Assembly: GCA_034520965.1 (NCBI GenBank)
Contig: JAXHMY010000009.1
Coordinates: 32,001 to 96,000 of the forward strand
Direction of reading: 5' to 3'
Source of the DNA: Spirochaetia bacterium
GTDB taxonomy: Bacteria > Spirochaetota > Spirochaetia > DSM-16054 > Sediminispirochaetaceae
DNA length: 64,000 nt
The first letter of the stretch is position 1. Every line of letters starts with the position of its first letter. The notes beneath the pieces are model-generated. The model did not search any database, had not been told where the DNA came from, and saw only the letters and a program-made list of their open reading frames with translations. Both the position numbers and the translations under genes were made by a program. Positions 25,301 through 59,828 of this stretch are shown in pieces.

Positions 25301-26353
25301 TTAAGTGTAGGCTTGAAAGGAGCCGCGGGTAGCTACGGCTATCTTTACCAGGGTCAGCATAACCGGCACTTCCACCAATACTCCGACCACTGTAGCTAAA
25401 GCCGCCCCCGATTGTAAGCCGAACAAGCTTACCGCAACAGCCACTGAAAGCTCGAAGAAGTTGCTGGCCCCGATCATCGCGCCGGGACCTGCTATACCAT
25501 GGGGAACTTTCCATAGCTTGGCCCATCCGTAGGCGATACCGAAGATCAAAAATGTCTGAATGACCAGGGGCACCGCGATAAGCAGAATGTGAATGGGATT
25601 ATTCAGAATCGTCTCTCCCTGGAAAGAGAAGAGAATAATAAGGGTGAGCAGCAGTCCGCCGATGGTGGTGTTATCGAATTTTTTCAAAAACACATTTTCA
25701 AAATAGTCGGAGCCGCGACGCTTGATAATAGTGCGCCGAGAGATGTATCCACCGGCCAGGGGAATGACTACAAACAGGACTACCGACAGGAACAGGGTGT
25801 CGTAGGGAACCTGAATATTGCTCACTCCCAGGAGGAAGGCGACGATCGGGGTGAAGGCCACCAGGATGATCAGGTCGTTGACCGCCACCTGGACAACCGT
25901 GTAGGCGGGGTCGCCGTCGGAGAGGTAGCTCCAGACAAATACCATGGCGGTACAGGGGGCGGCTCCCAGGAGCACCGCTCCGGCCAGGTACTCGGTGGCC
26001 AGGCCGGATTCAATGAAAGGAGCAAACACAATTTTAAGAAAGAAATAGGCGATAAGGTACATGGTGAAGGGCTTGATCAGCCAGTTTGTGACGGTGGTGA
26101 TGGTAAGCCCCTTCGGCTTTTTGGTGGCATTCACGATACTGGTGAAATCGACCTTCAGCATCATTGGGTAGATCATCAGCCATATAAGAATTGCGACCGG
26201 TATTGAAACCCGGGCGTATTCTAGGGTACTGAGAAAATCCGGTATCGCCGGGATAAAACGGCCGATAAGGGTCCCTACCACGATGCAGAGGGCGACCCAG
26301 AGGGTAAGATATCTTTCGAATAAACTGATTTGTTTGGTTTGAGCTTGACTCAT
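25301..26353 (-). CDS. acr3: ACR3-family arsenite efflux transporter
   Basis: FERYLTLWV, MIYPMM, NWLIKPF, APCTAMV, ASNFFEL, GVLVEVP. Confidence 0.97.
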   Translation of the reverse strand: MSQAQTKQISLFERYLTLWVALCIVVGTLIGRFIPAIPDFLSTLEYARVSIPVAILIWLMIYPMMLKVDFTSIVNATKKPKGLTITTVTNWLIKPFTMYLIAYFFLKIVFAPFIESGLATEYLAGAVLLGAAPCTAMVFVWSYLSDGDPAYTVVQVAVNDLIILVAFTPIVAFLLGVSNIQVPYDTLFLSVVLFVVIPLAGGYISRRTIIKRRGSDYFENVFLKKFDNTTIGGLLLTLIILFSFQGETILNNPIHILLIAVPLVIQTFLIFGIAYGWAKLWKVPHGIAGPGAMIGASNFFELSVAVAVSLFGLQSGAALATVVGVLVEVPVMLTLVKIAVATRGSFQAYT

Positions 26354-27538: not shown

Positions 27539-27599
27539 TAATAATAGGTAAAGGAGAGTTGAGAACGTCGTGGGAGGCGTTACATCCAAGGAGAAGCAG

Positions 27600-28040
27600 A
27601 TGAACGAAATGATCGAGGTGTTCAAGGTCCTCTCTGATGAGACACGCCTACGTATTGTCCGTCTCTTTCTGCATGCAGAGGTCTCCCTCTGTGTGTGTGA
27701 GATTGTGGATGCATTAGGTCTGCCGCAGTACAAAGTCTCGCGGCATCTATCGGCCCTCAAAAACGCCGGATTGATGGATGCCACGAAAAAGGGGACCTGG
27801 GCCTATCACCAGTTAAAAGTCGATTCACCGCTCCTTTCAAAGCTATGGGAGTTCATCGGCTCTACCTCCTTGGATGAGGATGGCGAGCTGTTGCTGGAGC
27901 GTGACCGTGAGGTATTAGATTGGCGGCTGTCTCTGCGAGATAACGACATGTGTGTGGTTGGGCTCTCTCCCGGCACAGGGAAGGACGAAGCTGGGATGAC
28001 CGAAAATGATGAAAATAGAACGAAACAAAATGATAGATGA
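27600..28040 (+). CDS. arsR: ArsR regulator
   Basis: FKVLSDETRLRI, LCVCE, QYKVSRHL. Confidence 0.92.
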   Translation: MNEMIEVFKVLSDETRLRIVRLFLHAEVSLCVCEIVDALGLPQYKVSRHLSALKNAGLMDATKKGTWAYHQLKVDSPLLSKLWEFIGSTSLDEDGELLLERDREVLDWRLSLRDNDMCVVGLSPGTGKDEAGMTENDENRTKQNDR

Positions 28041-28117
28041 GCGACACGAAACAAAACGACTCCGCCGTCAAAATAGAGATTTTCGACCCGCCTATGTGTT
28101 GCCTTGGCGTAATATAA
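28037..28117 (+). pseudogene. arsD: ArsD N-terminal fragment
   Basis: MSDTKQNDSAVKIEIFDPPMCCLGVI*. Confidence 0.85.
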
Positions 28118-28520
28118 GGAGCGAATTCTTGCCGATGCCCGAGAGAAATACTCCGAAGACATGCTGATTGCGGTAAAAGAGGAGCTCGAGACACCCTGTA
28201 CGGAAGAGATGGCGGCGTTTGACAAGTTTATGTGGTACGTGGAAAGGGAGGCGTACCGGGCTATGGAAGATCTGCGGGCAGCGGGAATCGACACACAATT
28301 TGTGGTAGCAAACCAGGTGCTTGAAGAGGAGTATTGCAGCAACGACTTCTTCCGCAAGCGGCGTGCGATGCAGGAGAAATATCTATCTGAGATAAACCGA
28401 CTCTTTCAGCTGCCGGTAACGGTTATGCCGCTTTTTGAGACTGAGATCACCGGACTGGAGATGGTCGAGTGGGCTGCTGAGGCTCTCTTTGCGGGAGCCA
28501 TGGAAAAGACTTCACTATAG
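28113..28520 (+). pseudogene. arsA: ArsA C-terminal remnant with further 234 bp deletion
   Basis: Matches about 42372-42511 and 42742-42990 of the intact arsA; no P-loop or DTAP motif left. Confidence 0.92.
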
Positions 28521-28569
28521 TTTCGGCTGTTGCCGACTCTATGTGTATAAAAGCGAGGAGGGAGATACG

Positions 28570-28869
28570 ATGGAGCATGTAGTTAGAGTGTTCGTGCCTC
28601 CCCTGGGGGAGTGCGCGGGAAAAAATACCTGGGAAAAAGCCTTAGGGGTGGTGGAATCACGCTTACGCGAAAAACTGGAGTTCGAAGTGCGGTTCGAGAT
28701 AGTCACTCTTTTCAGTAAGGAATTCTTTGCCTACCCCGAGGTGGCATCACTCGTGCAGTCCGGAGAGGGAGAGCCGCCGATTGTGACTCTGGACGACCGA
28801 GTCATTCAGAGAGGAGGAAAACTGCGCGAACGGACTATCCGGGAGGCCCTGGAAGAGAATTTTATATAA
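28570..28869 (+). CDS. Thioredoxin/ArsD-like fold hypothetical protein
   Basis: RBS GAGGGAG; VRVFVPPLGEC...PPIVTLDDRVIQRGG. Confidence 0.6.
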   Translation: MEHVVRVFVPPLGECAGKNTWEKALGVVESRLREKLEFEVRFEIVTLFSKEFFAYPEVASLVQSGEGEPPIVTLDDRVIQRGGKLRERTIREALEENFI

Positions 28870-28881
28870 GGTGAAGAAACT

Positions 28882-29247
28882 GTGTCCAATCTTGACGCAC
28901 GAGAGAAAGAGTTTGCAGAAGGAGTCGCCCAAACAGCGGAATACCACGAGTTTCAAACCGCTGTCGATGCGTATCACAAAGACGAAGAGGCTCTGGAGCT
29001 CTTGCAAAAGTTCCAAACGGCTCAAGAGCAAGCACAAAAGTTTGAGCCCTGGGGAGGGGGCTCAACTGGAGACGAAGAAGATCTGGAGACGCTTCAGGCG
29101 AAAGTGTTGGCACAACCGATGCTTGCCCGATACTTCAGGTCTCAAGAGACGCTTCTCCAGGCGCTCCAGGAGACCAACAGATATATGGCCGACAAGTTGG
29201 GGTTTGATTTTGCCGGGCTCACCAGACCAGCCGGTGGCTGTTGTTAA
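28882..29247 (+). CDS. YlbF-family Cys-Cys-terminal protein, chimeric start from deleted CMD gene
   Basis: First 10 aa equal CMD gene 43061, remainder nearly identical to 43338-43724; ends PAGGCC. Confidence 0.8.
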   Translation: MSNLDAREKEFAEGVAQTAEYHEFQTAVDAYHKDEEALELLQKFQTAQEQAQKFEPWGGGSTGDEEDLETLQAKVLAQPMLARYFRSQETLLQALQETNRYMADKLGFDFAGLTRPAGGCC

Positions 29248-29271
29248 AGCTTCGAATAAAGAGGATGCAGT

Positions 29272-29643
29272 ATGATTAGTAGAGAATTACAGAACACAGC
29301 GGACGCCTTGGTGACCGCATTAGAAAAAAACGAGAGCATTTCAGCTTATCAGGCGGCAAAACATCGGTCTGAGAAAAACGAGGAGCTCAAGCAGTTTCGG
29401 TCGAACTATTCCGAACTTCTGCCCGAACTCCAGCAAAAGCAAGCGGACGGAAGCCTCACGCAGGAGGACATTGGAAGCTTACGCTCCCTTCAGGAAAAAA
29501 TCAATCAACACCCGGCCTCTGTCGAATTACTTCGCACCTTGCAGGAGGCAACCCCGATACTGAAAGAGTGCAACAGTACGATAAGCCGGATCCTGGGATT
29601 CGACTTCTCTGCACACGCAGCTCCGCCTTCCGGGTGTTGTTAA
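29272..29643 (+). CDS. YlbF-family Cys-Cys-terminal protein
   Basis: Helical, LGFDF motif, ends PPSGCC; near-identical to 43749-44120. Confidence 0.8.
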   Translation: MISRELQNTADALVTALEKNESISAYQAAKHRSEKNEELKQFRSNYSELLPELQQKQADGSLTQEDIGSLRSLQEKINQHPASVELLRTLQEATPILKECNSTISRILGFDFSAHAAPPSGCC

Positions 29644-38195: not shown

Positions 38196-38237
38196 TGGAG
38201 TTAGACGCAAGCGATGAATACATCAAACATCAATATA
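38196..38237 (+). repeat. 42 bp direct repeat, copy 1
   Basis: TGGAGTTAGACGCAAGCGATGAATACATCAAACATCAATATA identical to 45378-45419. Confidence 0.92.
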
Positions 38238-38250: not shown

Positions 38251-38829
38251 ATGAATGAGGAAAAAACTGAGTGTTGTGATTTAAGTATGATAGTTTCAAC
38301 CTTTTATCATCAATTAAAAAGATATCTAATAGGAAAAATCGGAGATATTCATTTGGCCGAAGATATAGTGCAGGAAGTTATGCTGAAAGTAGTTTCCGCC
38401 CATCGAAAGAGTATATACGTAAAAAATGTAAAGGCCTGGGTGTACCAGATTGCACGCAATACTTTGATAGATCATTACAGGAGAAAAAAGAATACAATAG
38501 AAAACTGCGAAGAATACATTGATGAAATACTGTCTACGCAAAAAGAGGACAATTTCAGCCTAGATGAATACTTGATTCCGATGATAAATTTGCTTCCTGA
38601 AAAATACAGTATGCCTTTATTACTTTTTGATATAAAAAACAAATCACAGAATGAAATTGCCCAAATAATTGATATTTCCCTTTCGGCAACCAAAATGAGG
38701 ATTCAAAGAGCCAGAAAAATGCTATATGGTTTGTTTGTTGAATGTTGTGATATCCAATATACCGAAAACGGATCTTTCTTACATTGTGAAGTAAAAGAAA
38801 CATGTATCCCATTAAGAAATTTGGAATAA
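38251..38829 (+). CDS. sigZ: ECF sigma factor, SigZ-like
   Basis: AEDIVQEV, WVYQIARNTLIDHYR, TKMRIQRAR, C-terminal ECC; AT-rich. Confidence 0.82.
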   Translation: MNEEKTECCDLSMIVSTFYHQLKRYLIGKIGDIHLAEDIVQEVMLKVVSAHRKSIYVKNVKAWVYQIARNTLIDHYRRKKNTIENCEEYIDEILSTQKEDNFSLDEYLIPMINLLPEKYSMPLLLFDIKNKSQNEIAQIIDISLSATKMRIQRARKMLYGLFVECCDIQYTENGSFLHCEVKETCIPLRNLE

Positions 38830-38909
38830 ATTTTTAGAAAAATGTGTCTTTTACGTGCTTCATCTCGTCTCCCTTATAAAGAAGCTGATTCTACTAATAG
38901 GAGCTATAG

Positions 38910-39806
38910 ATGAACACATTGATTGATACGCTTCAGTATTTTGTCGTAATTACCCTTGAGTTAATAGTCTTGTTTATTGGGATAACCGCAATTGTTGAAT
39001 TTATTCTAATGCATATATCGGAAGAAAAAATGAAAAAACTTCTTTCCGGTAAAGGTTTATGGGGCAATATCATTGGATCCGGACTTGGAAGCGTGACTCC
39101 ATTTTGTGCTTGTTCAACCATACCTATGACAGTTGGATTTCTAAATGCGAAAGTGCCTTTTGGTGCTACAATGTCATTTTTAATAGCTTCACCATTGGTG
39201 AACCCCATTATTATTGGGATGCTGGCGTTTTTCGTTGGTGTCAAAGCGGCAGCCATCTATTTTTTACTTGCTTTTATTCTATCGGTATTTTTTGGCTTCA
39301 TTCTTGAAAAAACTGGATTCAAAAAATATATAAAGAATGTTCGAGTTAAGGGCGACACAAAAATAAACGAACAAACTCCAAAGCAGTTATCATTTAAGTC
39401 AAAAATAAGAATATCATTATTTGCAGGTTGGTCAACATTAAAGCCGGTTCTAATATTTCTACTAATAGGCGTTGCCATAGGCGCAGTGATTTATGGGTAT
39501 ATGCCTGATGATTTTGTATTAAGAATTGCCGGTCCTGGTAATATTTTTGCCGTTCCTGTTGCCGCACTCGTTGGTGTACCGCTTTATATTAGAGCTGAAA
39601 CAGCAATTCCCATAGCGCTTTCTCTTGTAGAGAAAGGAATGGGTATAGGTACTGCCATCGCTTTAATAATAGGCGGTGCAGGTATGGCAATACCCGAGAT
39701 GAGTATGTTGGCAGGTATTTTTAAAATTAAACTTGTAGCTGCAATAGTTACTGTTATTTTTCTTACAGCCGTTATAAGCGGTTTTGTTTTCAATATTATT
39801 TTATAA
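38910..39806 (+). CDS. DUF318/ArsP-family permease
   Basis: TPFCACSTIP, FLIASPLVNP, GVPLY, GGAG-x-x-IPE. Confidence 0.9.
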   Translation: MNTLIDTLQYFVVITLELIVLFIGITAIVEFILMHISEEKMKKLLSGKGLWGNIIGSGLGSVTPFCACSTIPMTVGFLNAKVPFGATMSFLIASPLVNPIIIGMLAFFVGVKAAAIYFLLAFILSVFFGFILEKTGFKKYIKNVRVKGDTKINEQTPKQLSFKSKIRISLFAGWSTLKPVLIFLLIGVAIGAVIYGYMPDDFVLRIAGPGNIFAVPVAALVGVPLYIRAETAIPIALSLVEKGMGIGTAIALIIGGAGMAIPEMSMLAGIFKIKLVAAIVTVIFLTAVISGFVFNIIL

Positions 39807-39824
39807 CTTACAAAGGAGGCAGTT

Positions 39825-40013
39825 ATGACAGATAAAGATAAAAAGGGCTTATTCACCAGATTGTTTTCTGAAAGACCAAAGAAAGGAGGTTGTTGTAATA
39901 TCCAGTTTGAAGAGATTTCTGATGAAAATTACATATCAGAAAATCAAAAGAATAAGAACTCTGCGAAGATAGAAGATAAAGCAGACATTACAAACAAAAA
40001 AAAAGAGCAATGA
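39825..40013 (+). CDS. Small Cys-Cys protein
   Basis: 62 aa, KKGGCCNIQFEEI; RBS AAGGAGG. Confidence 0.7.
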   Translation: MTDKDKKGLFTRLFSERPKKGGCCNIQFEEISDENYISENQKNKNSAKIEDKADITNKKKEQ

Positions 40014-40347: not shown

Positions 40348-40407
40348 TTGACTAATATGATCAAGCTTATTACTATATGTACATGCAAACATGCGCATGT
40401 ATACATA
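40348..40407 (+). promoter_or_regulatory. Promoter and ArsR operator of second ars operon copy
   Basis: TTGACT-17-TACTAT then CATGCAAACATGCGCATGTATACATA. Confidence 0.65.
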
Positions 40408-40426: not shown

Positions 40427-40743
40427 ATGAACCAACCATATGCTTTCAACAGCTGATACCCGACTGCGAATTGTACGGCTGCTCCTTGCAGTCGATAGTT
40501 CGGTATGTGTTTGCGAACTGGTTGATGCCCTGGGGCTATCACGGATTAGCGGGCACAGACTCGTTATTGTCTGCGCTCTGGACATTTCTGCGTACCGCGC
40601 CGATGGATACGAAAGAAGAGAAACAGCTCCGGCGAGATCAGAAGGCTTTGGAACTTCGATTGCAGCTGCGCAAGAACGGAATATGTGTTCTAGGACGGCA
40701 CTCTAGGCACCTTCAGAAGTCTGAAGGAAAGAGTAAAACCTGA
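40427..40743 (+). pseudogene. arsR: ArsR pseudogene (recognition helix deleted, frames broken)
   Basis: DTRLRIVRLL...CVCELVDALGL in one frame, LLSALWTFL...RLQLRKNGICVLG in another; both match ArsR 27600. Confidence 0.85.
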
Positions 40744-40765: not shown

Positions 40766-41125
40766 ATGAGTAGTGACAAAATTGTTGATTCAAAGGTGGG
40801 AGTCGAAATCTTCGATCCGCCGATGTGTTGTCCTGGAGGTCTTTGCGGACCAGCAATCGATCCGGCACTTCTGGATGTAAACGAAGCGGTGCTCCGGCTC
40901 AAGAAAGAGCATGGAATTGCCGTACAACGGTATCTGCTTCAGCAGCAGGGGCAGAAGTTCATGGAAAACCCGGAGGTTCTCGCGCTCCTCAAGGAGCACG
41001 GAACGGACATTCTGCCGTTGACTGTGGTCAATGGAATAGTTGTAAAGAAACAGGGTTTCCCTACCTACGAGGAGCTGCTCGCCTGGAGCGAAAGCGGCAA
41101 TTCGGCAGGGGTGGAACAGCAATAA
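40766..41125 (+). CDS. arsD: Arsenite metallochaperone ArsD
   Basis: FDPPMCCPGGLCGP, LPLTVVNG, FPTYEEL. Confidence 0.92.
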   Translation: MSSDKIVDSKVGVEIFDPPMCCPGGLCGPAIDPALLDVNEAVLRLKKEHGIAVQRYLLQQQGQKFMENPEVLALLKEHGTDILPLTVVNGIVVKKQGFPTYEELLAWSESGNSAGVEQQ

Positions 41126-41139
41126 CAGGAGTAGTTAAC

Positions 41140-43011
41140 ATGAGTTCATCACAGACACAGTATCTATTTTTCTCCGGCAAGGGGGGTGTTGGCAAAACGA
41201 CGATGGCCTGCGCCACCGCAGTTGAGAATGCCGAAGCGGGAAAGCGCACCCTCATCGTCACAACCGATCCGGCGTCAAACCTTTCAGACGTTTTTGAGAC
41301 CGAAATCGGCCATACTGTCAGGCCTTTGGGAGAGAGCCACGGAATAACCGGACTCTACGGTATGGAAATTGACCCGGATCTGGCTACAGAGGAGTACCGG
41401 GAGCGGATTCTCGCACCTATGAGGGCGGTAATGCCGGAGAGCGTGATCAAGGTAATGGAGGAGCAGTTTAACTCGCCATGCACCACGGAGATAGCCTCTT
41501 TCGACCGTTTCGTGGACTTCATGTCCGAAGGCGCCGACTGGGATGTGGTTATTTTTGATACGGCCCCAACAGGCCATACCCTTCGACTCCTGGAGCTTCC
41601 GGTAGACTGGAGCACGCACATCGAAGAGAGTGCCAAGGGGACCGGTAACACCTGCATAGGTCCGGTTGCCTCGATTCAGGAAAACAAGGTCAAATATGAT
41701 GAGGCAACCCGGCTCCTGGCCGATCCGGAACGAACGGAGTTTACCTTCGTGCTCCTGCCCGAGGAGACTTCCATTTACGAGACAAAGCGGTCATCAGCAG
41801 AGCTTGCGGAGATCGGCATAAAAAACACACGTCTTATTGTCAATGGTATTCTTCCGGAAGATGTTTGCGATCATCCGTTCTTTCGCAGTCGCTACGATAT
41901 GCAGCAGAGACACCTGATTCAAATTGGAGAAGAGTTCTCTTCTCCATTGAAGTACATGTACCAGCGAGACGGCGAAATAAAGGGCGTTGTGGGGCTTAAA
42001 CATATAGCTCGGGACCTCTTTGCCGGAAAAAACCACCACCCACAGTATTCACTCGGTTCCCCCGAAATCGGAGGAGAGGCGGAGTATGAGGTGCAGGACT
42101 CCCGCTCTCTCATGGATACGATTCGCCCGAGCACCGAAAAAACCAAGGCGATATTCTTTACCGGTAAGGGCGGCGTCGGCAAGACGGCAGTCTCCTGTGC
42201 TACCGCATTCGCCCTTGGGCGGGCCGGTTTCAAAACCCTCCTGCTGACCACCGATCCAGCCTCACATATCGGCCAGGTCCTGGAGCAGCCGGTGGGCGAT
42301 ACGATTACCGCTGTTAAGGATGCTCAGAATCTCGACGCAGTCATGATTGATCAGGAACAGGCGGTAATAGAGTACAAGGAGCGAATTCTTGAGGATGCAA
42401 AGAAGAAATACTCGGAAGATATGCTCCTGGCGGTTCGAGAGGAACTCGAATCTCCCTGTACCGAGGAGATGGCAGCCTTTGACAAGTTTATGTGGTACGT
42501 AGAAAAAGAGGAGTACGACATAGTTGTATTCGACACAGCTCCCACGGGGCATACATTACGGCTCCTTGAGCTCCCCTTCGACTACGCCGACCAGGTAGGA
42601 ATGATGGTCACCACCACCGGAGAAGGGAATACGGCTAAGAGCGAGACCCAGGCCCGGTTTGACCGAATTATTAAGCAAATGAAAGATCCCGAGCGCAGTG
42701 CCTTCGGTTTTGTTGTCTACCCGGAGTCGACACCCGTGGTTGAGGCGTACCGGGCTATGGAAGATCTGCGGGCAGCGGGAATCGACACACAATTTGTGGT
42801 AGCAAACCAGGTGCTTGAAGAGGAGTATTGCAGCAACGACTTCTTCCGCAAGCGGCGTGCGATGCAGGAGAAGTACCTGGGTGAAATCAATCGTCTGTTT
42901 AAGCTGCCGGTGACAATCATGCCGCTTTTTGAGACTGAGATCACCGGACTGGAGATGGTGGAACGGGGAGCCGATGCGCTTTTTGCCAACACAGCCGTAT
43001 CCTGCACTTAG
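41140..43011 (+). CDS. arsA: Arsenical pump-driving ATPase ArsA (tandem NBDs)
   Basis: Two GKGGVGKT, two DTAPTGHT, metal-site Cys in SPCTTE, TCIGP, SPCTEE. Confidence 0.96.
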   Translation: MSSSQTQYLFFSGKGGVGKTTMACATAVENAEAGKRTLIVTTDPASNLSDVFETEIGHTVRPLGESHGITGLYGMEIDPDLATEEYRERILAPMRAVMPESVIKVMEEQFNSPCTTEIASFDRFVDFMSEGADWDVVIFDTAPTGHTLRLLELPVDWSTHIEESAKGTGNTCIGPVASIQENKVKYDEATRLLADPERTEFTFVLLPEETSIYETKRSSAELAEIGIKNTRLIVNGILPEDVCDHPFFRSRYDMQQRHLIQIGEEFSSPLKYMYQRDGEIKGVVGLKHIARDLFAGKNHHPQYSLGSPEIGGEAEYEVQDSRSLMDTIRPSTEKTKAIFFTGKGGVGKTAVSCATAFALGRAGFKTLLLTTDPASHIGQVLEQPVGDTITAVKDAQNLDAVMIDQEQAVIEYKERILEDAKKKYSEDMLLAVREELESPCTEEMAAFDKFMWYVEKEEYDIVVFDTAPTGHTLRLLELPFDYADQVGMMVTTTGEGNTAKSETQARFDRIIKQMKDPERSAFGFVVYPESTPVVEAYRAMEDLRAAGIDTQFVVANQVLEEEYCSNDFFRKRRAMQEKYLGEINRLFKLPVTIMPLFETEITGLEMVERGADALFANTAVSCT

Positions 43012-43060
43012 AAGGGCCCGGATCGTGAAAATAATACATTTTATATGAGGAGAAGAAACT

Positions 43061-43297
43061 ATGTCGAATCTTGACGCACGAGAGAAAGAGTTAGTAGCTA
43101 TTGGTGCCGCCTATGCCGGCAACTGCATCCCATGCATGGAGTATCATATACCTGCAGCCCGAAAGGCCGGGTTGACGGATGAACAGATTCAGGAAGCTAT
43201 CGAGCTTGCTGAAAAAGTGAAGCAGGTTCCGGCTAAGAAGGTGCTCGATACAGCAAAGTTGCTTATCGCGGGAGTCGGCGGCGGCATTAAAGTATAA
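43061..43297 (+). CDS. Carboxymuconolactone decarboxylase/AhpD-family protein
   Basis: LDAREKELVAIG...CIPCMEYH...AGLTDEQI. Confidence 0.88.
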   Translation: MSNLDAREKELVAIGAAYAGNCIPCMEYHIPAARKAGLTDEQIQEAIELAEKVKQVPAKKVLDTAKLLIAGVGGGIKV

Positions 43298-43337
43298 TGC
43301 TGCCGTCACGAAGAATTCATAGAAACAGGAGGATTAA

Positions 43338-43724
43338 ATGGCTGAACAGACAAAAAATATAGATACACTTATCGCTGCGGCTCAGGAGTTTGCAGAAGGA
43401 GTCGCCCAAACAGCGGAATACCACGAGTTTCAAACCGCTGTCGATGCGTATCACAAAGACGAAGAGGCTCTGGAGCTCTTGCAAAAGTTCCAAACGGCTC
43501 AAGAGCAAGCACAAAAGTTTGAGCCCTGGGGAGGAGTTTCAACTGGAGGCGAAGAAGATCTGGAGACGCTTCAGGCGAAAGTGTTGGCACAACCGATGCT
43601 TGCCCGATACTTCAGCTCTCAAGAGACGCTTCTTCAGGCGCTCCAGGAGACAAACATCTATATGGCCGACAAGTTGGGGTTTGATTTTGCCGGGCTCACC
43701 AAACCAGCCGGTGGCTGTTGTTAA
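43338..43724 (+). CDS. YlbF-family Cys-Cys-terminal protein
   Basis: Helical YlbF-like pattern, LGFDFA, ends GGCC. Confidence 0.8.
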   Translation: MAEQTKNIDTLIAAAQEFAEGVAQTAEYHEFQTAVDAYHKDEEALELLQKFQTAQEQAQKFEPWGGVSTGGEEDLETLQAKVLAQPMLARYFSSQETLLQALQETNIYMADKLGFDFAGLTKPAGGCC

Positions 43725-43748
43725 AGCTTCGAATAAAGAGGATGCAGT

Positions 43749-44120
43749 ATGATTAGTAGAGAACTACAGAACACAGCGGACACCTTGGTGACCGCATTAG
43801 AAAAAAACGAGAGCATTTCAGCTTATCAGGCGGCAAAACGTCGCTCTGAGGAAAACGAGGAGCTCAAGCAGCTTCGGGCGACCTATTCCGAACTACTGCC
43901 CGAGCTCCAGCAAAAGCAAGCGGACGGGACCCTCACGCAGGAGGACATTGGAAGCTTACGCTCCCTCCAGGAACAAATCAATCAACACCCGGCCTCCGTC
44001 GAATTACTTCGCACCCTGCAGGAGGCAACTCCGATACTGAAAGAGTGCAACAGTACGATAAGCCGGATCCTGGGATTCGACTTCTCTGCACACGCAGCAC
44101 CGCCTTCCGGGTGTTGTTAA
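43749..44120 (+). CDS. YlbF-family Cys-Cys-terminal protein (paralogue)
   Basis: Helical YlbF-like pattern, LGFDFS, ends SGCC. Confidence 0.8.
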   Translation: MISRELQNTADTLVTALEKNESISAYQAAKRRSEENEELKQLRATYSELLPELQQKQADGTLTQEDIGSLRSLQEQINQHPASVELLRTLQEATPILKECNSTISRILGFDFSAHAAPPSGCC

Positions 44121-44145
44121 CCACCGGTTTGGACGATACGTGTCT

Positions 44146-45386
44146 ATGCCTGCAATAAAGCAGAATACCCGGGTGCGCAGATACGCGCGCCTTCTTGTAA
44201 AGGTGGCAGTGAACATTCAGCCGGGGCAGCGATTCACCATATGGAAGGCCCCGGTCGACGCTGCTCCCTTTGTGCGGATGCTTACCGAAGAAGCATATAT
44301 TGCCGGAGCCTCGTATGTAGATGTTTTCTGGCGGGACGATCACCTGGAATTGATCCGCCTCATGCGCACAGCTCCTTCGGTCTACACCGATCGCCCTGAT
44401 TGGGAAGTGACTGTTATGGAAAACTCGGCGAGACAGGGGGTGCATTTCTCTTTTTTGACTGCACCTGTGCGGGGGTCTTTGACAATACCCCAACGGCAAT
44501 GGTAGCCCGAGCGCTGGCATTGGAGAGCGAACATCTTCAACGGGTCTGGCAGTTTTTTGTGCGCAATACGGTCAACTGGTCAATTGCCACGGTTCCGACT
44601 CCAAGCTGGGCACACAAGGTGTTCCCGGAGCTCCCGGTCGAAGAGGGAATACAGGAGCTCTGGGAGACCATTTTTGTCACTTGTCGTATAGATACGGAGA
44701 ATTACGTTGAACGATGGGAGCGACACCGAAGCACCCTGGAGGATCGTAGTCGATTGCTCAATGATTTACGCCTTAGAGCACTCCACTTTGAAGGTCCCGG
44801 GACAGAGTTGAGAGTGGGGCTTCCCCGCGGTCACGTATGGCGCAATCCCGGTTTCGTGACGCAAGACGGAATACCCTTCATCGCGGATATCCCAATAGAA
44901 GAGGTGTTTACCCTGCCGCATCGAAATGAGGTGGAAGGCCATGTTCGTTCGACCAGGCCTTTTGTGGTGAACGGACGAACCGTCGATGATTTCACCCTGC
45001 GGTTTCAGAGAGGAAGGATCACCAGTATCGAGGGGTGCAGGCAGGATCAGGAGATGCTTCGCACGCTTATAAACAACAATGAAGGTGCGGATCGGCTCGG
45101 CGAGGTGGCTCTGGTTCCCGTAGACTCACTGGTGGCTAATCGCGACCGCCCCTATTACAACACCCTGTTCGATGAAAACTCCTCCTCTCACCTCGCCTTT
45201 GGTCGTGCGTACCGTTTCTGTCTCGATGGCGGCGAGGAGCTGTCAGAGGAGAAATTCCTCGCCGCCGGGGGCAATGTTAGCTCCGTTCATGTGGATTTCA
45301 TGGTTGGTTCGACGGAGGTACATGTTTTTGGTGAGACATGGGATGGGCTGCGGATACCGATTATGCAAAATGGAGTGTGGAGTTAG
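44146..45386 (+). pseudogene. M29 (AmpS/aminopeptidase T) peptidase, frameshift at G5 run 44436-44440
   Basis: YARLLVKVAVNIQPGQ N-terminus; IPIEEVFT, LGEVALV, TLFDEN, HLAFG, HVDFM in second frame. Confidence 0.85.
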
Positions 45387-45439
45387 ACGCAAGCGATGAA
45401 TACATCAAACATCAATATATAAAGAATGTTCGAGTTAAG
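45378..45439 (+). repeat. Collapsed remnant of second sigZ-permease copy
   Basis: 45378-45419 = 38196-38237 and 45414-45439 = 39325-39350, joined at AATATA. Confidence 0.88.
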
Positions 45440-47994: not shown

Positions 47995-48758
47995 CACCGA
48001 CAAAACGTATCTTTTTCCCAGGATGCAGCCTTCCTTCGTATAACCCGGAGGCGGTTGAAAAAATGATGGAACACCTGAAGGAGCGCCTTCCTGGAACAGG
48101 AGCGATTCTCAAGTGCTGCGGTAAGCCCACCAAGGCCCTTGGCCAGGTGGATAAATTCAAGAAGCGGTACGCCGGTGTACAGAAAGAGTTTGACCGGCTC
48201 GGGGCCGAAGAGATTATCGTCGCCTGCCAGTCCTGTTTTCTGACCCTTTCGGAGTACAGCCCGAAGCAAAAAATACGCTCGCTCTGGACGTTGCTGCCGG
48301 AAATCGGACTGCCCGAGGCCTCCCGCGGTATCGGCAAGGATAGCGACATCACCTTTGCGATTCATGATTCCTGTTCAACCCGGTACCGGTCGGATATCCA
48401 CGAAGGTGTTCGCTGGATCATGGACGAACTCGGATATAAGTATGAGGAACCGCCACATACCAAGGGGTCGACCCTCTGCTGCGGTTTTGGCGGAATGATT
48501 CTGCCGGCCAACCCGGAGCTTGCGCAGCGGATCATGGAGAACCGCACCTCCGAGGTGGAGTCTGAGTACATGGTCACGTACTGTGCGGCGTGCCGCGGGT
48601 CGATGATGATGGGTGGCAAAACTGCTCTTCATATACTTGACCTAATATTCGGCGGTCCCTGGAACTCGAAGTCTACATTTCCCGGTTCCGGCACCACGAT
48701 TGAATCGTGGAAGAACCGGCGGAAGGCAAAAAAGGGACTTGAAACCGTGCTTTCTTAA
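47991..48758 (+). CDS. CCG-domain (HdrB/HdrD-type) Fe-S protein
   Basis: FPGC, CCG, ACQSC, HDSC, CCGFGG, YCAAC. Confidence 0.9.
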   Translation: MTPTKRIFFPGCSLPSYNPEAVEKMMEHLKERLPGTGAILKCCGKPTKALGQVDKFKKRYAGVQKEFDRLGAEEIIVACQSCFLTLSEYSPKQKIRSLWTLLPEIGLPEASRGIGKDSDITFAIHDSCSTRYRSDIHEGVRWIMDELGYKYEEPPHTKGSTLCCGFGGMILPANPELAQRIMENRTSEVESEYMVTYCAACRGSMMMGGKTALHILDLIFGGPWNSKSTFPGSGTTIESWKNRRKAKKGLETVLS

Positions 48759-48859
48759 GGTTTTACCCACCCGGATCTGGCTGCTTAAGGCCCCTCCGGG
48801 TGTATTTTTTATCCTGCGTTTTTTCGCAGGAAAGATTTATCATTACAGGAGTTTGAACA

Positions 48860-49969
48860 ATGAAAAGGATTCTCTTTTTCGGACTGGTTCTCCTGGCAGT
48901 TATTTCGGCAACTTCCCTCTTTGGGGTGGATATTGAGCCGAAATACCAGGAGTACGCTCGCTCTGAGATCTTGATCAGCCCGGAACGGGCGCAGTACCTG
49001 ATGCAGAACGAGGATAATATAGTCGTTGTGGATGTGCGTGATGAGGGAGACTACGAGGCGGGACATCTTCCCGGTGCAGTCAATACATTTCGTAAAGATT
49101 ACGGCGCCCGCGGCGGCGAGTACAACTTAATGTGTATGCGAGTGGATTCTGCAAAGATTCACGAGCTTCTTGGCACCCTTGGAATCGACGGTAACAGCCG
49201 CATCATTGTCTATTCGGCTGGTTCCGGCTTCGATTCGTTTCGTTTCGCGTGGCTCGTCACTATGTACGGACACGACCGGGAGAAGGTGCATATCATCGAC
49301 GGTTTCTTTCCTGCCTGGAAAGCTGCAGGACTGCCTACTACCACCGATAAACCTTCAGTAAGCCCGGTACGCTACCAGCCCCCGGGCACGGTGGACGAGT
49401 CACGGCTTGCACTCATTGAGGATGTGGACCGGGCGCTCAAAGACCCGAATGTGATTATCCTTGATACCCGGACCCCTGCAGAGTGGTGGGGTATTGCGCA
49501 GTACGAGGGTGCGTCCCGCAAGGGCCACATTCCCGGAGCAATCCACATCAACTATGCCGAGAACTTTACCGATGAAGGCATCAAGTCCGCTGCAGAACTG
49601 CGGGCCCTCTATGAGGCGGCCGGCGTCACTCCCGACAAGGAGATTATCGCCTACTGTCAGTCCGGCATACGTTCTTCTCTGACAACCACCATTCTTGCCG
49701 ATGTACTTGGTTATCCCAACGTCAAAAACTACGACGGCTCGTGGGTAGAGTGGAGCTATGATCGCGATCGCCCTGTCACCGCGTATTTTCTTTACATTGT
49801 ATCAGCAGTATTTATCCTTGGTATAGTTGTTATCGGAGCGGCATACATTGTGAAGAGACGAAAAGGCAAGAGCAGCAAACTCCTGAAAATCGATCTGCTT
49901 GTTCTTATTATCTATGCGATTTTTCTGATGTGGTATTTTAACCTCTTCAGCTTAATCAGCGGATCATGA
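48860..49969 (+). CDS. Exported tandem-rhodanese sulfurtransferase, truncated duplicate lacking DedA domain
   Basis: GHLPGA, GHIPGA, YCQSGIR, YDGSWVEW; ends at duplication junction. Confidence 0.85.
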   Translation: MKRILFFGLVLLAVISATSLFGVDIEPKYQEYARSEILISPERAQYLMQNEDNIVVVDVRDEGDYEAGHLPGAVNTFRKDYGARGGEYNLMCMRVDSAKIHELLGTLGIDGNSRIIVYSAGSGFDSFRFAWLVTMYGHDREKVHIIDGFFPAWKAAGLPTTTDKPSVSPVRYQPPGTVDESRLALIEDVDRALKDPNVIILDTRTPAEWWGIAQYEGASRKGHIPGAIHINYAENFTDEGIKSAAELRALYEAAGVTPDKEIIAYCQSGIRSSLTTTILADVLGYPNVKNYDGSWVEWSYDRDRPVTAYFLYIVSAVFILGIVVIGAAYIVKRRKGKSSKLLKIDLLVLIIYAIFLMWYFNLFSLISGS

Positions 49970-50190
49970 AGAACCGTACCTCTGAGGTGGAGTCTGAGCA
50001 CATGGTCACTTACTGTGTGGCGTGCCGCGGGTCGATTATGATGGGCGGCAAAACTGCTCTTCATATACTTGACCTTATATTTGGCGGTCCCTGGAATTCG
50101 CAGTCTACATTTCCCGGTTCCGGCACCACGATTGAATCGTGGAAGAACCGGCGGAAGGCAAAAAAGGGACTTGAATCCGTGCTTGCTTAA
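49957..50190 (+). pseudogene. Duplicated 3' end of CCG-domain gene
   Basis: Repeats last about 75 codons of 47991-48758 with substitutions. Confidence 0.9.
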
Positions 50191-50291
50191 GGCTTTACCT
50201 ACCCGGATCTGGCTGCTTTGGGCCCCTCCGGGTGTATTTTTTATCCTGCGTTTTTTCGCAGGAAAGATTTATCATTACAGGAGTTTGAACA

Positions 50292-51980
50292 ATGAAAAGG
50301 ATTCTCTTTTTCGGACTGGTTCTCTTGGCAGTTATTTCGGCAACTTCCTTGTTTGGGGTGGATATTGAGCCGAAATACCAGGAGTACGCTCGCTCTGAGA
50401 TCTTGATCAGCCCGGAACGGGCGCAGTACCTGATGCAGAACGAGGATAATATAGTCGTTGTGGATGTGCGTGAAGAGGGAGACTACGAGGCGGGACATCT
50501 TCCCGGTGCAGTCAATACATTTCGTAAAGATTACGGCGCCCGCGGCGGCGAGTACAACTTAATGTGTATGCGAGTGGATTCTGCAAAGATTCACGAGCTT
50601 CTTGGCACCCTCGGAATCGACGGTAACAGTCGCATCATTGTCTATTCGGCTGGTTCCGGCTTCGATTCGTTTCGTTTCGCGTGGCTTGTCACCATGTACG
50701 GACACGACCGGGAGAAGGTGCATATCATCGACGGTTTCTTTCCTGCCTGGAAAGCTGCAGGACTGCCTACTACCACCGATAAACCTTCAGTAAGCCCGGT
50801 ACGCTACCAGCCCCCGGGCACGGTGGACGAGTCACGGCTTGCACTCATTGAGGATGTGGACCGGGCGCTCAAAGACCCGAACGTGATAATTCTCGACACC
50901 CGGACCCCTGCAGAGTGGTGGGGTATTGCGCAGTACGAGGGTGCGTCCCGCAAGGGCCACATTCCCGGAGCAATCCACATCAACTATGCCGAGAACTTTA
51001 CCGATGAAGGCATCAAGTCCGCTGCAGAACTGCGGGCCCTCTATGAGGCGGCCGGCGTCACTCCCGACAAGGAGATTATCGCCTACTGTCAGTCCGGCAT
51101 ACGTTCTTCTCTGACAACCACCATTCTTGCCGATGTACTTGGTTATCCCAACGTCAAAAACTACGACGGCTCGTGGGTAGAGTGGAGCTATGATCGCGAT
51201 CGCCCTGTCACCGCGTATTTTCTTTACATTGTATCAGCAGTATTTATCCTTGGTATAGTTGTTATCGGAGCGGCATACATTGTGAAGAGACGAAAAGGCA
51301 AGAGCAGCAAACTCCTGAAAATCGATCTGCTTGTTCTTATTATCTATGCGATTTTTCTGATGTGGTATTTTAACCTCTTCAGCTTGATCAGTATGGACCG
51401 TATCAATGAACTTCAGATGTGGATTGAGAGTTTCGGTTTGTTAGGCCCGGTCGTTTTTATGCTGCTCTTTATTGCGGCGTGTGTTTTCTTCCTACCCGGA
51501 GGTCCGTTTGGCATCATCGCGGGCATCATTTTCGGTCCCATTTTCGGGACAATCTGGGCTATTTTGGGAGCGACAATCGGTGCATCACTGGCTTTCCTTC
51601 TGGGACGATATGCGTTACGAGGTTTTGCGGAAAACCTGGTTGCCAAGAATCCCAAGCTCAAGAAGATAGACGACGGTGTAGAAAAAAACGGGTGGCGCAT
51701 GCTTATGATTACCCGCTTTATACCGATTTTTCCGTTTAATGTACAGAATTATGTATACGGGCTGACCAAGATCAAGTTTGTAACCTATGCCGGCCTCTCC
51801 TTCCTGTTTATGCTGCCGGGTACAATGGCGTACGTCTTTATAGCCGGCGCAGCCGTTTCCGGAGCGAATATGTCAACAATCCTGATCTACTTCGCTATCG
51901 GTGCCATCATCCTGGTTGGCCTGTCCCTGCTTCCTAAATTACTGAAAAAGAAGAGTAATGTTGAAGACATAATCGAGTAA
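50292..51980 (+). CDS. Tandem-rhodanese sulfurtransferase fused to TVP38/TMEM64 (DedA/VTT) membrane domain
   Basis: Signal peptide, YCQSGIR active loop, then GATIGASLAFLLGRY and RFIPIFPFNVQNY. Confidence 0.92.
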   Translation: MKRILFFGLVLLAVISATSLFGVDIEPKYQEYARSEILISPERAQYLMQNEDNIVVVDVREEGDYEAGHLPGAVNTFRKDYGARGGEYNLMCMRVDSAKIHELLGTLGIDGNSRIIVYSAGSGFDSFRFAWLVTMYGHDREKVHIIDGFFPAWKAAGLPTTTDKPSVSPVRYQPPGTVDESRLALIEDVDRALKDPNVIILDTRTPAEWWGIAQYEGASRKGHIPGAIHINYAENFTDEGIKSAAELRALYEAAGVTPDKEIIAYCQSGIRSSLTTTILADVLGYPNVKNYDGSWVEWSYDRDRPVTAYFLYIVSAVFILGIVVIGAAYIVKRRKGKSSKLLKIDLLVLIIYAIFLMWYFNLFSLISMDRINELQMWIESFGLLGPVVFMLLFIAACVFFLPGGPFGIIAGIIFGPIFGTIWAILGATIGASLAFLLGRYALRGFAENLVAKNPKLKKIDDGVEKNGWRMLMITRFIPIFPFNVQNYVYGLTKIKFVTYAGLSFLFMLPGTMAYVFIAGAAVSGANMSTILIYFAIGAIILVGLSLLPKLLKKKSNVEDIIE

Positions 51981-57297: not shown

Positions 57298-58659
57298 TCA
57301 CGATTTTCCTGAGTTCACATTCAACCATGCCGCGGCGGCCATCTGTACAGGGTCCCAGGGACTGCTCAGGGGCGGGGTGTAGCTCAAATCCAGCATAACA
57401 AACTCTGATACGCCAAGTCCCTGCTGCAGCGCTACAGCAATTATATCTATCCGCTTCGATACTTCTGCCTGCAGTGGACCGATTATCTGGCAGCCGAGAA
57501 GTCTTTGTGTATTCTTGTCAGCGGTGAAGCGGATATTCAGCTTGTGCGCCGGCGGGTAGTACTGTTTGTGATCCCAGGTCTCAAAGCTGTGCGTATACGG
57601 CTCGAATCCCGCCTCAGCCGCCTCCCTGTCATTGAGCCCGGTTCTGGCGATGACCATATCAAAAAGTTTCAACGACTGGGTTCCCAGTGTACCGGGATAT
57701 TTACTTTCCAGCCCGCAGATATTCTCCCCAATTATCCGGCCGTGTTTGTGGGCTGTGGTGCCAAGGGCTATGTAGACAGGCTGCTTTGTAATCGCATGGA
57801 GCGATTCGACGCAGTCACCGCCGGCATACACATCCTCGATATTGGTCTCCATCTTGCGGTTTACTTTTAGTGTGCCCTTGACCCCGATCTCAACGCCGAT
57901 GCTTTGACCCAGTGAGGACTCGGGGACAGCCCCGGTGGCGACCAGTATCATCTCCGCCGCAAAAGCCTTTCCGTTTCCCGTCAAGACCTCCAGACCATCG
58001 GCCTTTTCCGAAATCCTTTCTACTTTGTTTCTGGTAAAGATCTCCGCTCCGCGGTTTTCAAGGCCTGTTCGCACAATTTCAGCAAACTCTTTATCTACCG
58101 TCGGGAGTATCTGATCCAGAAACTCCAAAAGTTTCACCTTTATTCCCCGCCGTATGAGCGCTTCGGTCATCTCAAGCCCGATATACCCGCCACCGACTAT
58201 TACCGCCTCCCGGGGCGCCGTTTCTTTGATAAAACGGTCAATCCGGCGGGCCTCGTTGATCCAGCGAAGGGTAAAAACCCCCGGCAGATCCAGCCCAGGA
58301 ATGTTCGGCAGGGCTGACTTTCCTCCTGTTCCGATAACGAGTTTATCGTATCCAAGCGAGGTTTTTTCTCCTTCGGAATCGATAAAAACAACCTTTCTGG
58401 CTTTCGGGTCGATGGTTCGGACTTCAGCGCCAAGGTAGAGCTTCAATCCGGAAGCCCTGATTTCATCGGCCGTTCGGTGAGCCAGATCCTGGTAATCTGC
58501 TATCTCTCCTCCAAGAAAGAAGGGAATGCCGCAGATACTGAAATTCGGGTAGGTATTACCCGAGAGTACCGAAACATCGGCTTCGGAATCGAGTTCACAG
58601 ATCCTCAATCCTGCGGTAATACCAACATCGCTGCCGCCTATAATAAGCACTCTTTTCAT
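57298..58659 (-). CDS. CoA-disulfide reductase/NADH oxidase-family flavoprotein (paralogue of 23446-24810)
   Basis: SICGIP, GGGYIGLE, DLSYTPPLSSPWDP. Confidence 0.9.
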   Translation of the reverse strand: MKRVLIIGGSDVGITAGLRICELDSEADVSVLSGNTYPNFSICGIPFFLGGEIADYQDLAHRTADEIRASGLKLYLGAEVRTIDPKARKVVFIDSEGEKTSLGYDKLVIGTGGKSALPNIPGLDLPGVFTLRWINEARRIDRFIKETAPREAVIVGGGYIGLEMTEALIRRGIKVKLLEFLDQILPTVDKEFAEIVRTGLENRGAEIFTRNKVERISEKADGLEVLTGNGKAFAAEMILVATGAVPESSLGQSIGVEIGVKGTLKVNRKMETNIEDVYAGGDCVESLHAITKQPVYIALGTTAHKHGRIIGENICGLESKYPGTLGTQSLKLFDMVIARTGLNDREAAEAGFEPYTHSFETWDHKQYYPPAHKLNIRFTADKNTQRLLGCQIIGPLQAEVSKRIDIIAVALQQGLGVSEFVMLDLSYTPPLSSPWDPVQMAAAAWLNVNSGKS

Positions 58660-58802
58660 TTACCTATGCTCCATAATTGTAGTATATGACCCTTTGTAAA
58701 AGAAAACCTAGATAAGCGATCGAAAACCATTGAAGCAGCTACTTCCCGAGGGTTACTTCCATCTCCGCACTGGTATTCATACACCACAGCTATCTCCTCC
58801 GG

Positions 58803-59195
58803 TTATTCAAATTGGTTAAAAAAACTCTTACCTACATAATATGCTAAATTATGCATATCTTCAAATTCAATAAGACCTGCAGGTGCCTGTGAGTGTACCA
58901 AGCCAGGCTTCAGCCTGTTTTTTCTGATTATGGCGATAACAGCACGCAAAACGCTGTGACCTTTTGCAAGTTTATAGTAAACCCATAAACCTTTCTTCTC
59001 AGATTCTACAAATCCGGCATTTCTTAAAACGGCGAGCTGTCTGGATACCTTGTATTGAGGCAATAGAAGAGCGTCAGTGAGTTCACAAACACATAGACCG
59101 CTCTCATGAATAAAAATCAGCATTAAAACTCGAATCCGCTGCTCATCCGAAAGCGCTTTGAAAAACTCACCCCAATTTTGTTCGCTTTCGTTCAT
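58803..59195 (-). CDS. ArsR regulator
   Basis: FKALSDEQRIR, LCVCEL, QYKVSRQL; C-terminus may be a rearrangement. Confidence 0.85.
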   Translation of the reverse strand: MNESEQNWGEFFKALSDEQRIRVLMLIFIHESGLCVCELTDALLLPQYKVSRQLAVLRNAGFVESEKKGLWVYYKLAKGHSVLRAVIAIIRKNRLKPGLVHSQAPAGLIEFEDMHNLAYYVGKSFFNQFE

Positions 59196-59348
59196 AGTCA
59201 TAGTACATAACATAATACATGCCATTAATGTTATGCAAGATAGATAAAATGTGAGGCATTGTTAAACCCGCTTTTATCTATCAGTTTTTTGTATATTTAT
59301 CCCCCAGGGTCTTCAAGTTCTGAAGGCGCGGTTGCTCCAATGCATTCA

Positions 59349-59828
59349 TCATAGAAGCAGCAGAAATACTATCCCGACGAGACTGACAAGGACGAAGGTC
59401 AATACATTTCTCACGATGGTAAACTTCTTGCCGAAAGACAGAAGCTCGAGAGGGAGGGTCGATATTCCCATAAGAATCGCGATCATAACAAAACCGAAAA
59501 TGGCACCATAATTGGCTCCGTAGTCGCGCAAAAAACCAGCAAAGGGAAATACCGCTGCCGGTTGAATCAGTGCAAAGGACCCTATAAGCCCGCCAAGCAG
59601 AATAGAAAAAAATCCGTTCCCCGAACCAAGTAAATTCGCTATTAATTTCTGCGGGATAAATACCTGCATAAAGGACATCAATATAAAAATAAAAAAAAGC
59701 ACCGGAAGTATTGAGAGCGCAATGTGTCCGGTCGCGAGCAGTGCATTTTTAGTTTTAGTCCTATCTTTTACCAGAGATACAAGCAGAAGAATAGCTGCAA
59801 TTACCAGATAAATTGTTCCTGTATCCAT
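59349..59828 (-). CDS. Short permease subunit (DUF318-related)
   Basis: Hydrophobic, LPLE...FGKKFTIVRN; paralogous to 62683-63162. Confidence 0.75.
   Translation of the reverse strand: MDTGTIYLVIAAILLLVSLVKDRTKTKNALLATGHIALSILPVLFFIFILMSFMQVFIPQKLIANLLGSGNGFFSILLGGLIGSFALIQPAAVFPFAGFLRDYGANYGAIFGFVMIAILMGISTLPLELLSFGKKFTIVRNVLTFVLVSLVGIVFLLLL

Follow-up and report, generated by a model that had tools for sequence, protein, structure and literature searches.

A bacterial arsD-arsA operon with two full-length, cysteine-tailed YlbF paralogues

The locus and its closest described relatives

ArsA is the textbook motor of the arsenite pump ArsB. We analysed an ars operon that lacks a pump gene in a 64,000-nucleotide stretch from a Spirochaetia bacterium (GCA_034520965.1, contig JAXHMY010000009.1, positions 32,001 to 96,000; hereafter the window). 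The operon encodes ArsD, ArsA, a single-domain AhpD/CMD protein and two YlbF-type proteins with Cys-Cys tails (YlbF-1 and YlbF-2). The source assembly is 86% complete, and genome-wide absences are to be read within that scope. The arsD-arsA-YlbF unit is a bacterial form, with two full-length paralogues, of a haloarchaeal unit named in NCBIfam and RefSeq.

The haloarchaeal unit, arsD-arsA-hcsL-hcsS (models NF041417, NF041416 and NF041415; VNG_RS12860-12845 on pNRC100), is like the window operon in gene order and ArsA clade. It likewise has a pair of Cys-tailed YlbF-type genes, and a pump that is optional, and divergent where present. The pNRC100 annotation reads arsD-arsA-hcsL-hcsS-arsR-arsM, with no pump within 18 kb. 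The window unit differs in its bacterial host, in an inserted CMD gene and in scores under the cut-offs of all three models. Its second YlbF gene is full length (123 amino acids (aa)), whereas haloarchaeal HcsS has 62 aa and is internally shortened. In relatives of the window unit, genes for an FmdB zinc ribbon and an ArsD-like thioredoxin are present as well. Excerpts of PMC3600143 and PMC1447603 report that deletion of arsADRC makes Halobacterium NRC-1 sensitive while deletion of arsB is silent; the involvement of an unknown transporter has been proposed. The genes hcsL and hcsS sit right behind that arsA, and the gene order suggests that the arsADRC deletion might also have detached them from their promoter. 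A search of open-access PMC and bioRxiv text found no paper on HcsL/HcsS or on an arsA-arsD-YlbF unit.

The canonical ArsRDABC and ArsA-Acr3 systems (E. coli, Leptospirillum ArsA; PMC12415280) likewise have a three-Cys ArsD, and their ArsA residues C113/C172/C422, H148, S420 and H453 have equivalents in the window ArsA. The window ArsA, in contrast, is 33-38% identical to them, belongs to a separate clade and has no pump in its operon. Excerpts of the same source state that closed ArsA receives As(III) from ArsD at its three-Cys site, that hydrolysis then opens ArsA for the hand-off, and that direct ArsA-ArsB contact has little biochemical support.

The YlbF proteins resemble Bacillus RicA and RicF (YmcA and YlbF) of the RicAFT complex (PDB 6PRK, 6PRH; PMC6751060). 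They share the Com_YlbF fold by profile (E 2e-12 to 4e-11), they form a paralogue pair of about 20-28% identity and they carry Cys in C-terminal tails. Unlike RicA and RicF, the window pair consists of adjacent genes in an ars operon, with a patchy spread and a short GCC-stop tail. According to excerpts of PMC6751060, RicAF dimerises via helices 1, 2 and 5; of these, HcsS has retained helices 1 and 5, along with the tail.

The intact operon

The five genes of the operon are as follows.

40766-41125, + strand: ArsD metallochaperone (C21, C22, C27), above the NF033727 and PF06953 cut-offs
41140-43011, + strand: ArsA ATPase of the haloarchaeal-type clade, metalloid site intact, halves unusually alike (best model NF041417; tree; residues)
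43061-43297, + strand: single-domain AhpD/CMD protein with CxxCxxxH, accessory, above the PF02627 and TIGR00778 cut-offs
43338-43724, + strand: YlbF-1, Cys-Cys tail, first of the pair (HcsL position; PF06133; NF041416 under cut-off; clade 1)
43749-44120, + strand: YlbF-2, Cys-Cys tail plus C100, second of the pair (HcsS position; PF06133; clade 2)

A first-pass annotation, made from the letters alone, had described an intact arsD, an arsA with three metalloid-site Cys, a CxxC AhpD/CMD protein and two YlbF paralogues ending in GCC-stop, and the profile scores and residues bear this out. ArsD scores 106.7 bits against NF033727 (cut-off 90), with its CC-x4-C site at C21, C22 and C27. ArsA (623 aa) matches the general ArsA models (PF02374, TIGR00345) with two P-loop halves and has the three Cys, two His and Ser of the metalloid site (C114, C172 and C440 plus equivalents of H148, S420 and H453). 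These last numbers follow the E. coli protein; the residues themselves are confirmed in the alignment. The CMD protein (78 aa, C22xxC25) scores 56.1 bits against PF02627 and 44.1 bits against TIGR00778, each above cut-off. It also has weak matches to ArsM-AhpD and arsenosugar models, as CMD domains are found repeatedly in arsenic-related settings.

YlbF-1 and YlbF-2 are 28% identical to each other and score 52.1 and 56.1 bits against Com_YlbF (PF06133), well clear of the gathering cut-off of 23.9. YlbF-1 ends in LGFDFAGLTKPAGGCC and YlbF-2 in LGFDFSAHAAPPSGCC, each with GCC directly before the stop. The window has four instances of the tail motif, and 100 shuffles gave none. The C-N motif at C100 of YlbF-2 is also present in HcsS tails. 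The first-pass annotation had pointed to haloarchaeal HcsL/HcsS models in a similar context; such models exist in NCBIfam, and haloarchaeal plasmids are annotated arsD-arsA-hcsL-hcsS. The GCC-stop tails and the position right behind arsA, with one CMD gene between, match the tail-and-position feature of HcsL/HcsS, which we took from the model name and the RefSeq annotation. Of the profile searches that the first-pass annotation had proposed, the one with Com_YlbF succeeded, but HcsL (NF041416) gave 62.5 bits for YlbF-1 and 34.4 for YlbF-2 against a cut-off of 140; haloarchaeal housekeeping YlbFs reach 60-72 bits as well. HcsS (NF041415, a short form of 55 positions) had no match in the source genome, and its control also had none. 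We do not file the window YlbFs as HcsL/HcsS members. In tblastn, the plasmid matches of YlbF-1 were HcsL only (four matches), and this search was rejected as a negative control because it is too insensitive.

Anatomy of the YlbF pair

YlbF-1 and YlbF-2 likely form a RicAF-like heterodimer, as the first-pass annotation had supposed, because the paralogue trees are mirrored, natural fusions occur and a fusion is modelled with confidence. Gene-1 and gene-2 proteins make up two clades with mirrored branching (moderate supports). Nine natural tandem fusions were found, and in the tree the N-halves of such fusions group with gene 1 and the C-halves with gene 2, one C-half excepted. The structure model of a fusion has a pLDDT of 90.6 and a pTM of 0.82, scores that likeness to the solved RicAF may raise, and its tails are disordered.

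Among the 150 best of 873 profile matches, CC is present in 77 and a Cys within the last four residues in 143, with a profile that itself favours such tails. The tails of the two proteins together hold at least three Cys in 40 of 42 pairs, most commonly as 3+2 or 2+1; this count includes near-identical copies, and one CC was preselected by the search pattern. The conserved tail of the first-pass annotation stands as regards the Cys, but second genes often end with one C in place of the CC. In an alignment with the window YlbFs, HcsS matches their outermost two helices and the tail and lacks the middle helices, and it is, judging from this alignment, an internally shortened homologue of the window genes. 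The Cys tail predates its arsenic use, and the family was recruited to arsenic rather than made for it, because Cys-tailed YlbFs occur outside ars loci.

In P0043, P0124 and P0148, a Cys-tailed YlbF domain is fused to the end of a TSCPD domain that resembles the C-terminal region of B12-dependent ribonucleotide reductase. Many haloarchaea have a single chromosomal YlbF that ends in DFGxxAGGCCxx, with no ars genes near (L211-L216). One locus (L110:5779-9114) has, adjoining its ars operon, a second YlbF pair that is flanked by ABC ATPase and SufBD genes on one side and by an RseC/MucC gene on the other.

The ArsA clade

The window ArsA scores 677.7 bits against the ArsA_halo model NF041417, which is under the cut-off of 800 yet the best model, and 494.8 bits against the canonical TIGR04291 (cut-off 650). 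Its 25 best plasmid matches are all haloarchaeal. In a FastTree tree of 45 sequences, the YlbF-linked bacterial ArsAs group with haloarchaeal ArsAs, and six canonical ArsAs are set apart with a support of 1.0; the one-clade grouping is a reading of the tree topology. The six metalloid-site residues are present in every full-length ArsA of this tree. Half-to-half identity is 38-47% in the haloarchaeal-type clade versus 31-34% in canonical ArsAs. An independent duplication of the halves was considered and rejected, as A1 and A2 cluster across clades. A four-cysteine ArsA was rejected as well: the extra Cys 243, 353 and 564 occur in 24, 29 and 18 of 38 clade members, respectively, none of them universal, and in none of the six canonical ArsAs.

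In a sister group of ArsAs (L014-L020, L022-L024), YlbF is missing and a gene for a CC-tailed HesB/IscA-like protein separates arsD from arsA. A HesB-like neighbour was rejected as a specific marker, since one is annotated in a Bacillus ars operon. On an Alicyclobacillus plasmid (L028, NZ_CP066340.1) ArsA is split into two genes, a CMD gene precedes arsD and YlbF is missing; the first half of this ArsA branches between the canonical and haloarchaeal-type clades.

Linkage of the pair to ArsA

Word-index homologue searches returned close relatives only (2 and 12 proteins), and loci were collected with a DNA pattern. The scan of GTDB genomes returned 119 of about 140 stretches (118 loci, 79 with flanks and 39 short). 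Among the flanked loci, 47 lacked a YlbF profile match and were discarded as chance, leaving 32 real YlbF loci; 15 of the 39 short loci have YlbF. Going by record titles, the 32 loci belong to Chloroflexota, Spirochaetota, Ignavibacteria/Bacteroidota, Deltaproteobacteria and Halobacteria. Neighbours were labelled by BLAST against our own query set. We found arsA at 21 of these loci; of the 19 whose upstream flank spans 5 kb or more, 15 have it. The other neighbours are the ArsD-like thioredoxin (22 loci), arsR (19), arsD (15), ArsP (9), acr3 (8), arsB (4) and methyltransferase matches (5). A co-occurrence with arsA and arsD, for which the first-pass annotation had suggested a neighbourhood survey, is seen across phyla.

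The ArsA_halo model matches in 40 of 46 YlbF-CC genomes at 1e-30 and in 7 of 251 Chloroflexota at 1e-100, two thresholds that differ. Besides the sample centre, four of six Chloroflexota genomes with this ArsA have the pair within 6 kb and two do not. Among 18 metagenome ArsAs, five of the seven with at least 68% identity are accompanied by YlbF, and the contigs of the other two end at or just after arsA; the 11 with 51-59% identity have no YlbF, most of them having a CC-tailed HesB-like gene instead. No YlbF was found near canonical ArsAs at the six loci tested.

The linkage is tightest in Halobacteria. In a sample of 151 genomes, this type of ArsA is present in 32, an hcsL-level match (124 bits or more) in 33 and both in 32. 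Each of the 37 ArsA matches has an hcsL match right after it, no more than 170 bases away. The sample was centred on a genome from the pattern scan, genomes of this kind served to build the models, and related genomes are not independent. This link is far tighter than that of any known pump to this ArsA. In the phylum of the window itself, the tailed YlbF type is found in 2 of 301 genomes; YlbFs without the tail also occur in the phylum, as single genes that are unlinked. The tailed type has a patchy spread and is probably mobile.

The CMD gene is present at 7 of the 32 loci, not always in the same place, and the annotations of the three haloarchaeal plasmid regions examined do not include it. 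CMD is an accessory, optional helper, and the dedicated reductant of the first-pass annotation is not upheld. The usual bacterial neighbour of the pair is an FmdB zinc ribbon with a C-x6-CC tail (17 of 32 GTDB loci; L007:3978-4199, L008, L010, L011 and L013), which had no match in the source genome.

Pumps in and around the unit

Two candidate outlets lie elsewhere in the window.

25301-26353, - strand: acr3 arsenite pump in a usp-acr3-arsR-CoA-disulfide-reductase unit, divergent from a second, decayed operon copy (copy 2); TIGR00832 387 bits, cut-off 283
38251-40013, + strand: low-GC cassette sigZ - ArsP permease - 62-aa GGCC protein, upstream of the operon (Pfam/NCBIfam; GC)

The first-pass annotation had noted that the operon has no pump. 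The acr3 gene is indeed 14.4 kb off, and neither ArsB nor ArsM had a match in the source genome, but an ArsP-family permease (38910-39806; PF03773, 178 bits) lies 960 bases 5' of the operon on the same strand and is a candidate membrane outlet. The sigZ-arsP cassette is probably a separate unit, because its GC is 32-39% versus 48-54% in the operon; it also precedes the operon's own promoter-like site. The 62-aa protein with the GGCC motif behind arsP (39825-40013) has no Pfam or NCBIfam match.

Among the 32 haloarchaeal genomes with both ArsA and hcsL, acr3 is detected in 10, ArsP in 22, and none of acr3, ArsB and ArsP in 8; ArsB was found in none of 33 haloarchaeal genomes at 1e-10. Five of the eight pump-less genomes were searched further, with matches to ArsM in one, MIP in none and CitMHS in three. 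Two of them (G693 and G688) have no match to ArsM, MIP or CitMHS, and their locus consists of arsR, arsD, arsA and the pair only. Among pattern-derived genomes, acr3 is found in 19 of 46 and strong ArsB in 5 of 47, and ArsP is present in 21 of 26 that were selected for want of an intact acr3. At three loci arsB lies inside the operon (L070, L071 and L109), in the last two between arsA and the pair. The YlbF-ArsA system is independent of a known pump in many genomes, not as a rule, and the missing pump is not the defining trait for which the first-pass annotation had taken it.

What the pair may do

Tentatively, we favour a role for the pair as the acceptor of As(III) from ArsA after ATP hydrolysis, in the place that textbooks give to ArsB. 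Control by As(III) would run via ArsR, as the operator-like palindrome upstream suggests, with the arsR of copy 2 acting in trans, the local arsR being broken. ArsD would pass As(III) to the three-Cys site of ArsA, a step established for canonical ArsA and ArsD, of which all residues are present here. YlbF-1 and YlbF-2 would pair, and their tails would provide at least three thiols and take As(III) from ArsA. The loaded pair might then buffer As(III) and, more speculatively, pass it to the available outlet, Acr3 or ArsP here and ArsB or ArsM elsewhere; CMD and the ArsD-like thioredoxin would be optional helpers in thiol upkeep. The pair is the most likely acceptor because it is the closest follower of this ArsA clade and brings at least three thiols. 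The joint binding of a metal centre by tail Cys of RicF and RicA together with a third protein (PMC6751060) is a precedent.

Several points weigh against this acceptor role. Stoichiometric sequestration by itself yields little resistance. Among the 15 well-covered loci with arsA and YlbF, 6 have acr3 or arsB and 9 some pump, and the ArsP of 22 of the 32 haloarchaeal genomes makes an ArsP-type outlet possible. Cys-tailed YlbFs also occur without arsA: at L006, in G051, which has no such ArsA, and as pairs beside malic enzyme at L074 and L130; the haloarchaeal housekeeping YlbF (GGCCxx end) and the TSCPD fusions likewise lie outside ars loci. Conversely, some ArsAs of the clade lack the pair (L185, L186 and, in metagenomes, the 11 loci at 51-59% identity). 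The search pattern demanded one CC and the profile is biased towards Cys tails, related genomes and mobile copies do not count as independent cases, many genomes are incomplete, and gene order cannot give the direction of transfer. Finally, the C termini of RicAF exit on opposite faces according to excerpts of PMC6751060, and short tails may not meet at one site.

In a rival reading the pair acts upstream of ArsA, as a high-capacity As(III) scavenger that loads ArsD/ArsA, while ArsA drives an outlet (Acr3, ArsB, ArsP-type or unknown). The CC-plus-C pattern of the pair resembles the C-C-x4-C site of ArsD, FmdB and, in the sister group, the HesB-like protein are CC-tailed operon companions, the ArsD-like protein is a monothiol one, and ArsP, encoded 1 kb upstream here and present somewhere in the genome in 22 of 32 haloarchaea, could be such an outlet. 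ArsD, however, already holds the loading role at 15 of 15 well-covered arsA loci, and a quarter of the haloarchaeal genomes (8 of 32) lack an acr3, ArsB or ArsP match, so that we regard the scavenger as doubtful. It is unlikely that the tails of the pair instead hold an Fe-S cluster or zinc and that the pair repairs, protects or senses arsenite-damaged metal sites, with ArsA stripping arsenite from the pair or its clients. Such a role would follow the Ric proteins, in which RicF C134/C146 and RicA C141 jointly ligate a metal centre ([4Fe-4S]) with RicT (excerpts of PMC6751060), and the pair with C100 offers at least four Cys. The second pair of L110 has SufBD, ABC-ATPase and RseC genes as neighbours, genes for HesB-like proteins and ferredoxins turn up repeatedly, the source genome has an unlinked PSP1 (RicT-like) gene, and CC-tailed YlbFs exist away from ars genes. 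RicAF alone took up no cluster in the same excerpts, though, SufBD adjoins the pair at 1 of 32 loci, and the PSP1 gene, the one copy found in the source genome, is on another contig; the ars loci were not scanned for PSP1.

Known YlbF-domain proteins act in RNA maturation (excerpts of PMC6751060), and the pair could be a non-metal adaptor or regulator, as Ric is with RNase Y, or a passenger, with ArsA working without it. The clade ArsAs that lack the pair would fit, but the adjacency of all 37 haloarchaeal matches, an HcsS that dropped its middle helices and kept its Cys tail, and the single, unlinked state of tail-less YlbFs in the same phylum make this quite improbable. A hand-over of As(III) from the pair to ArsM, as a pump-free methylation route, is more improbable still: arsR2-arsM lies right behind hcsS on pNRC100, an arsM deletion is arsenite-sensitive (excerpts of PMC1447603) and methyltransferases recur at a few loci, but ArsM has no match in the source genome or in four of the five pump-less haloarchaea searched.

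The acceptor role can be extended to the whole ArsA clade, which would spend ATP on loading arsenite onto a soluble YlbF heterodimer and not a pump. ArsR-ArsD-ArsA-YlbF1-YlbF2 would then be a complete system of pump-free resistance to arsenite and antimonite, HcsL/HcsS would be the 'novel transporter' sought in NRC-1, and the Ric fold would serve more generally as a metal-thiolate acceptor; we consider this wide version rather unlikely. The acceptor role, if true, would be the first of the Com_YlbF family outside the Ric complex. The unit turns the old question of the missing ArsA partner into a directly testable one, and the window provides its bacterial, full-length form, which is easier to express than halophilic proteins.

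Other features of the window

The remaining features of the operon surroundings and copy 2 are listed below.

27570-29643, + strand: copy 2, with intact arsR, arsD stub, arsA fragments, thioredoxin-fold gene (28570-28869), CMD/YlbF-1 chimera (28882-29247) and YlbF-2 (29272-29643)
40348-40405, + strand: sigma-70-like promoter TTGACT-17-TACTAT, then palindrome TACATGC-N8-GCATGTA (consensus scan; palindrome comparison)
40440-40743, + strand: frameshifted arsR pseudogene (two-frame match to the intact arsR of copy 2; NF033788 just 23 bits)
44140-45386: gene for an M29 aminopeptidase, divided between two overlapping frames; in L077, L090, L108 and L191 the YlbF pair is likewise followed by M29 genes

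The promoter-like site is one of 11 consensus sites versus 8.6 expected and is weak alone; promoter and terminator scans did not rise above chance. A comparable palindrome is found 5' of arsR in copy 2 and in L090, L108 and L191, and the palindrome of the intact operon is likely the ArsR operator.

In copy 2, arsD ends after about 26 codons, arsA consists of two fragments, and a deletion joins the first CMD codons in frame to a YlbF-1 that lacks its first 16 residues. The arsD/arsA deletion is bridged by a short-read contig, from a run that is possibly the source of the window DNA, and at the other two junctions there are fewer than 31 bases on one side. Copy 2 is directly divergent from usp-acr3-arsR, a layout equal to that in two haloarchaeal plasmids. 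The first-pass annotation had taken the YlbF pair as retained in both copies. Copy 2 is decayed and its YlbF-1 chimeric, and the retention of the pair was rejected as evidence of current selection: dN/dS between the copies is 0.25 for the YlbF genes, and these low values are older than the decay, because the broken arsA fragment is also low (0.07). The thioredoxin-fold gene at 28570-28869 is missing from the intact operon; its protein is outside all Pfam families, has mostly one Cys and is related to ArsD (hhalign probability 89) and YuzD/DUF1462.

A 42-bp perfect direct repeat (38196-38237 and 45378-45419), which includes the last codons of the M29 peptidase gene, flanks a 7.2-kb block of sigZ-arsP, ars operon and peptidase, and may be the edge of an integrated or duplicated segment. 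A 1.4-kb tandem duplication (48525-49959 and 49957-51391, 97.8% identity) spans a double-rhodanese gene, of which the second copy continues into a VTT domain. The window as a whole is a larger metalloid-stress island, for the region 57298-63162 contains a second CoA-disulfide-reductase-like gene (72% DNA identity to 23446-24810), two further ArsR genes and one for a thioredoxin, as well as two pairs of split ArsP-family genes.

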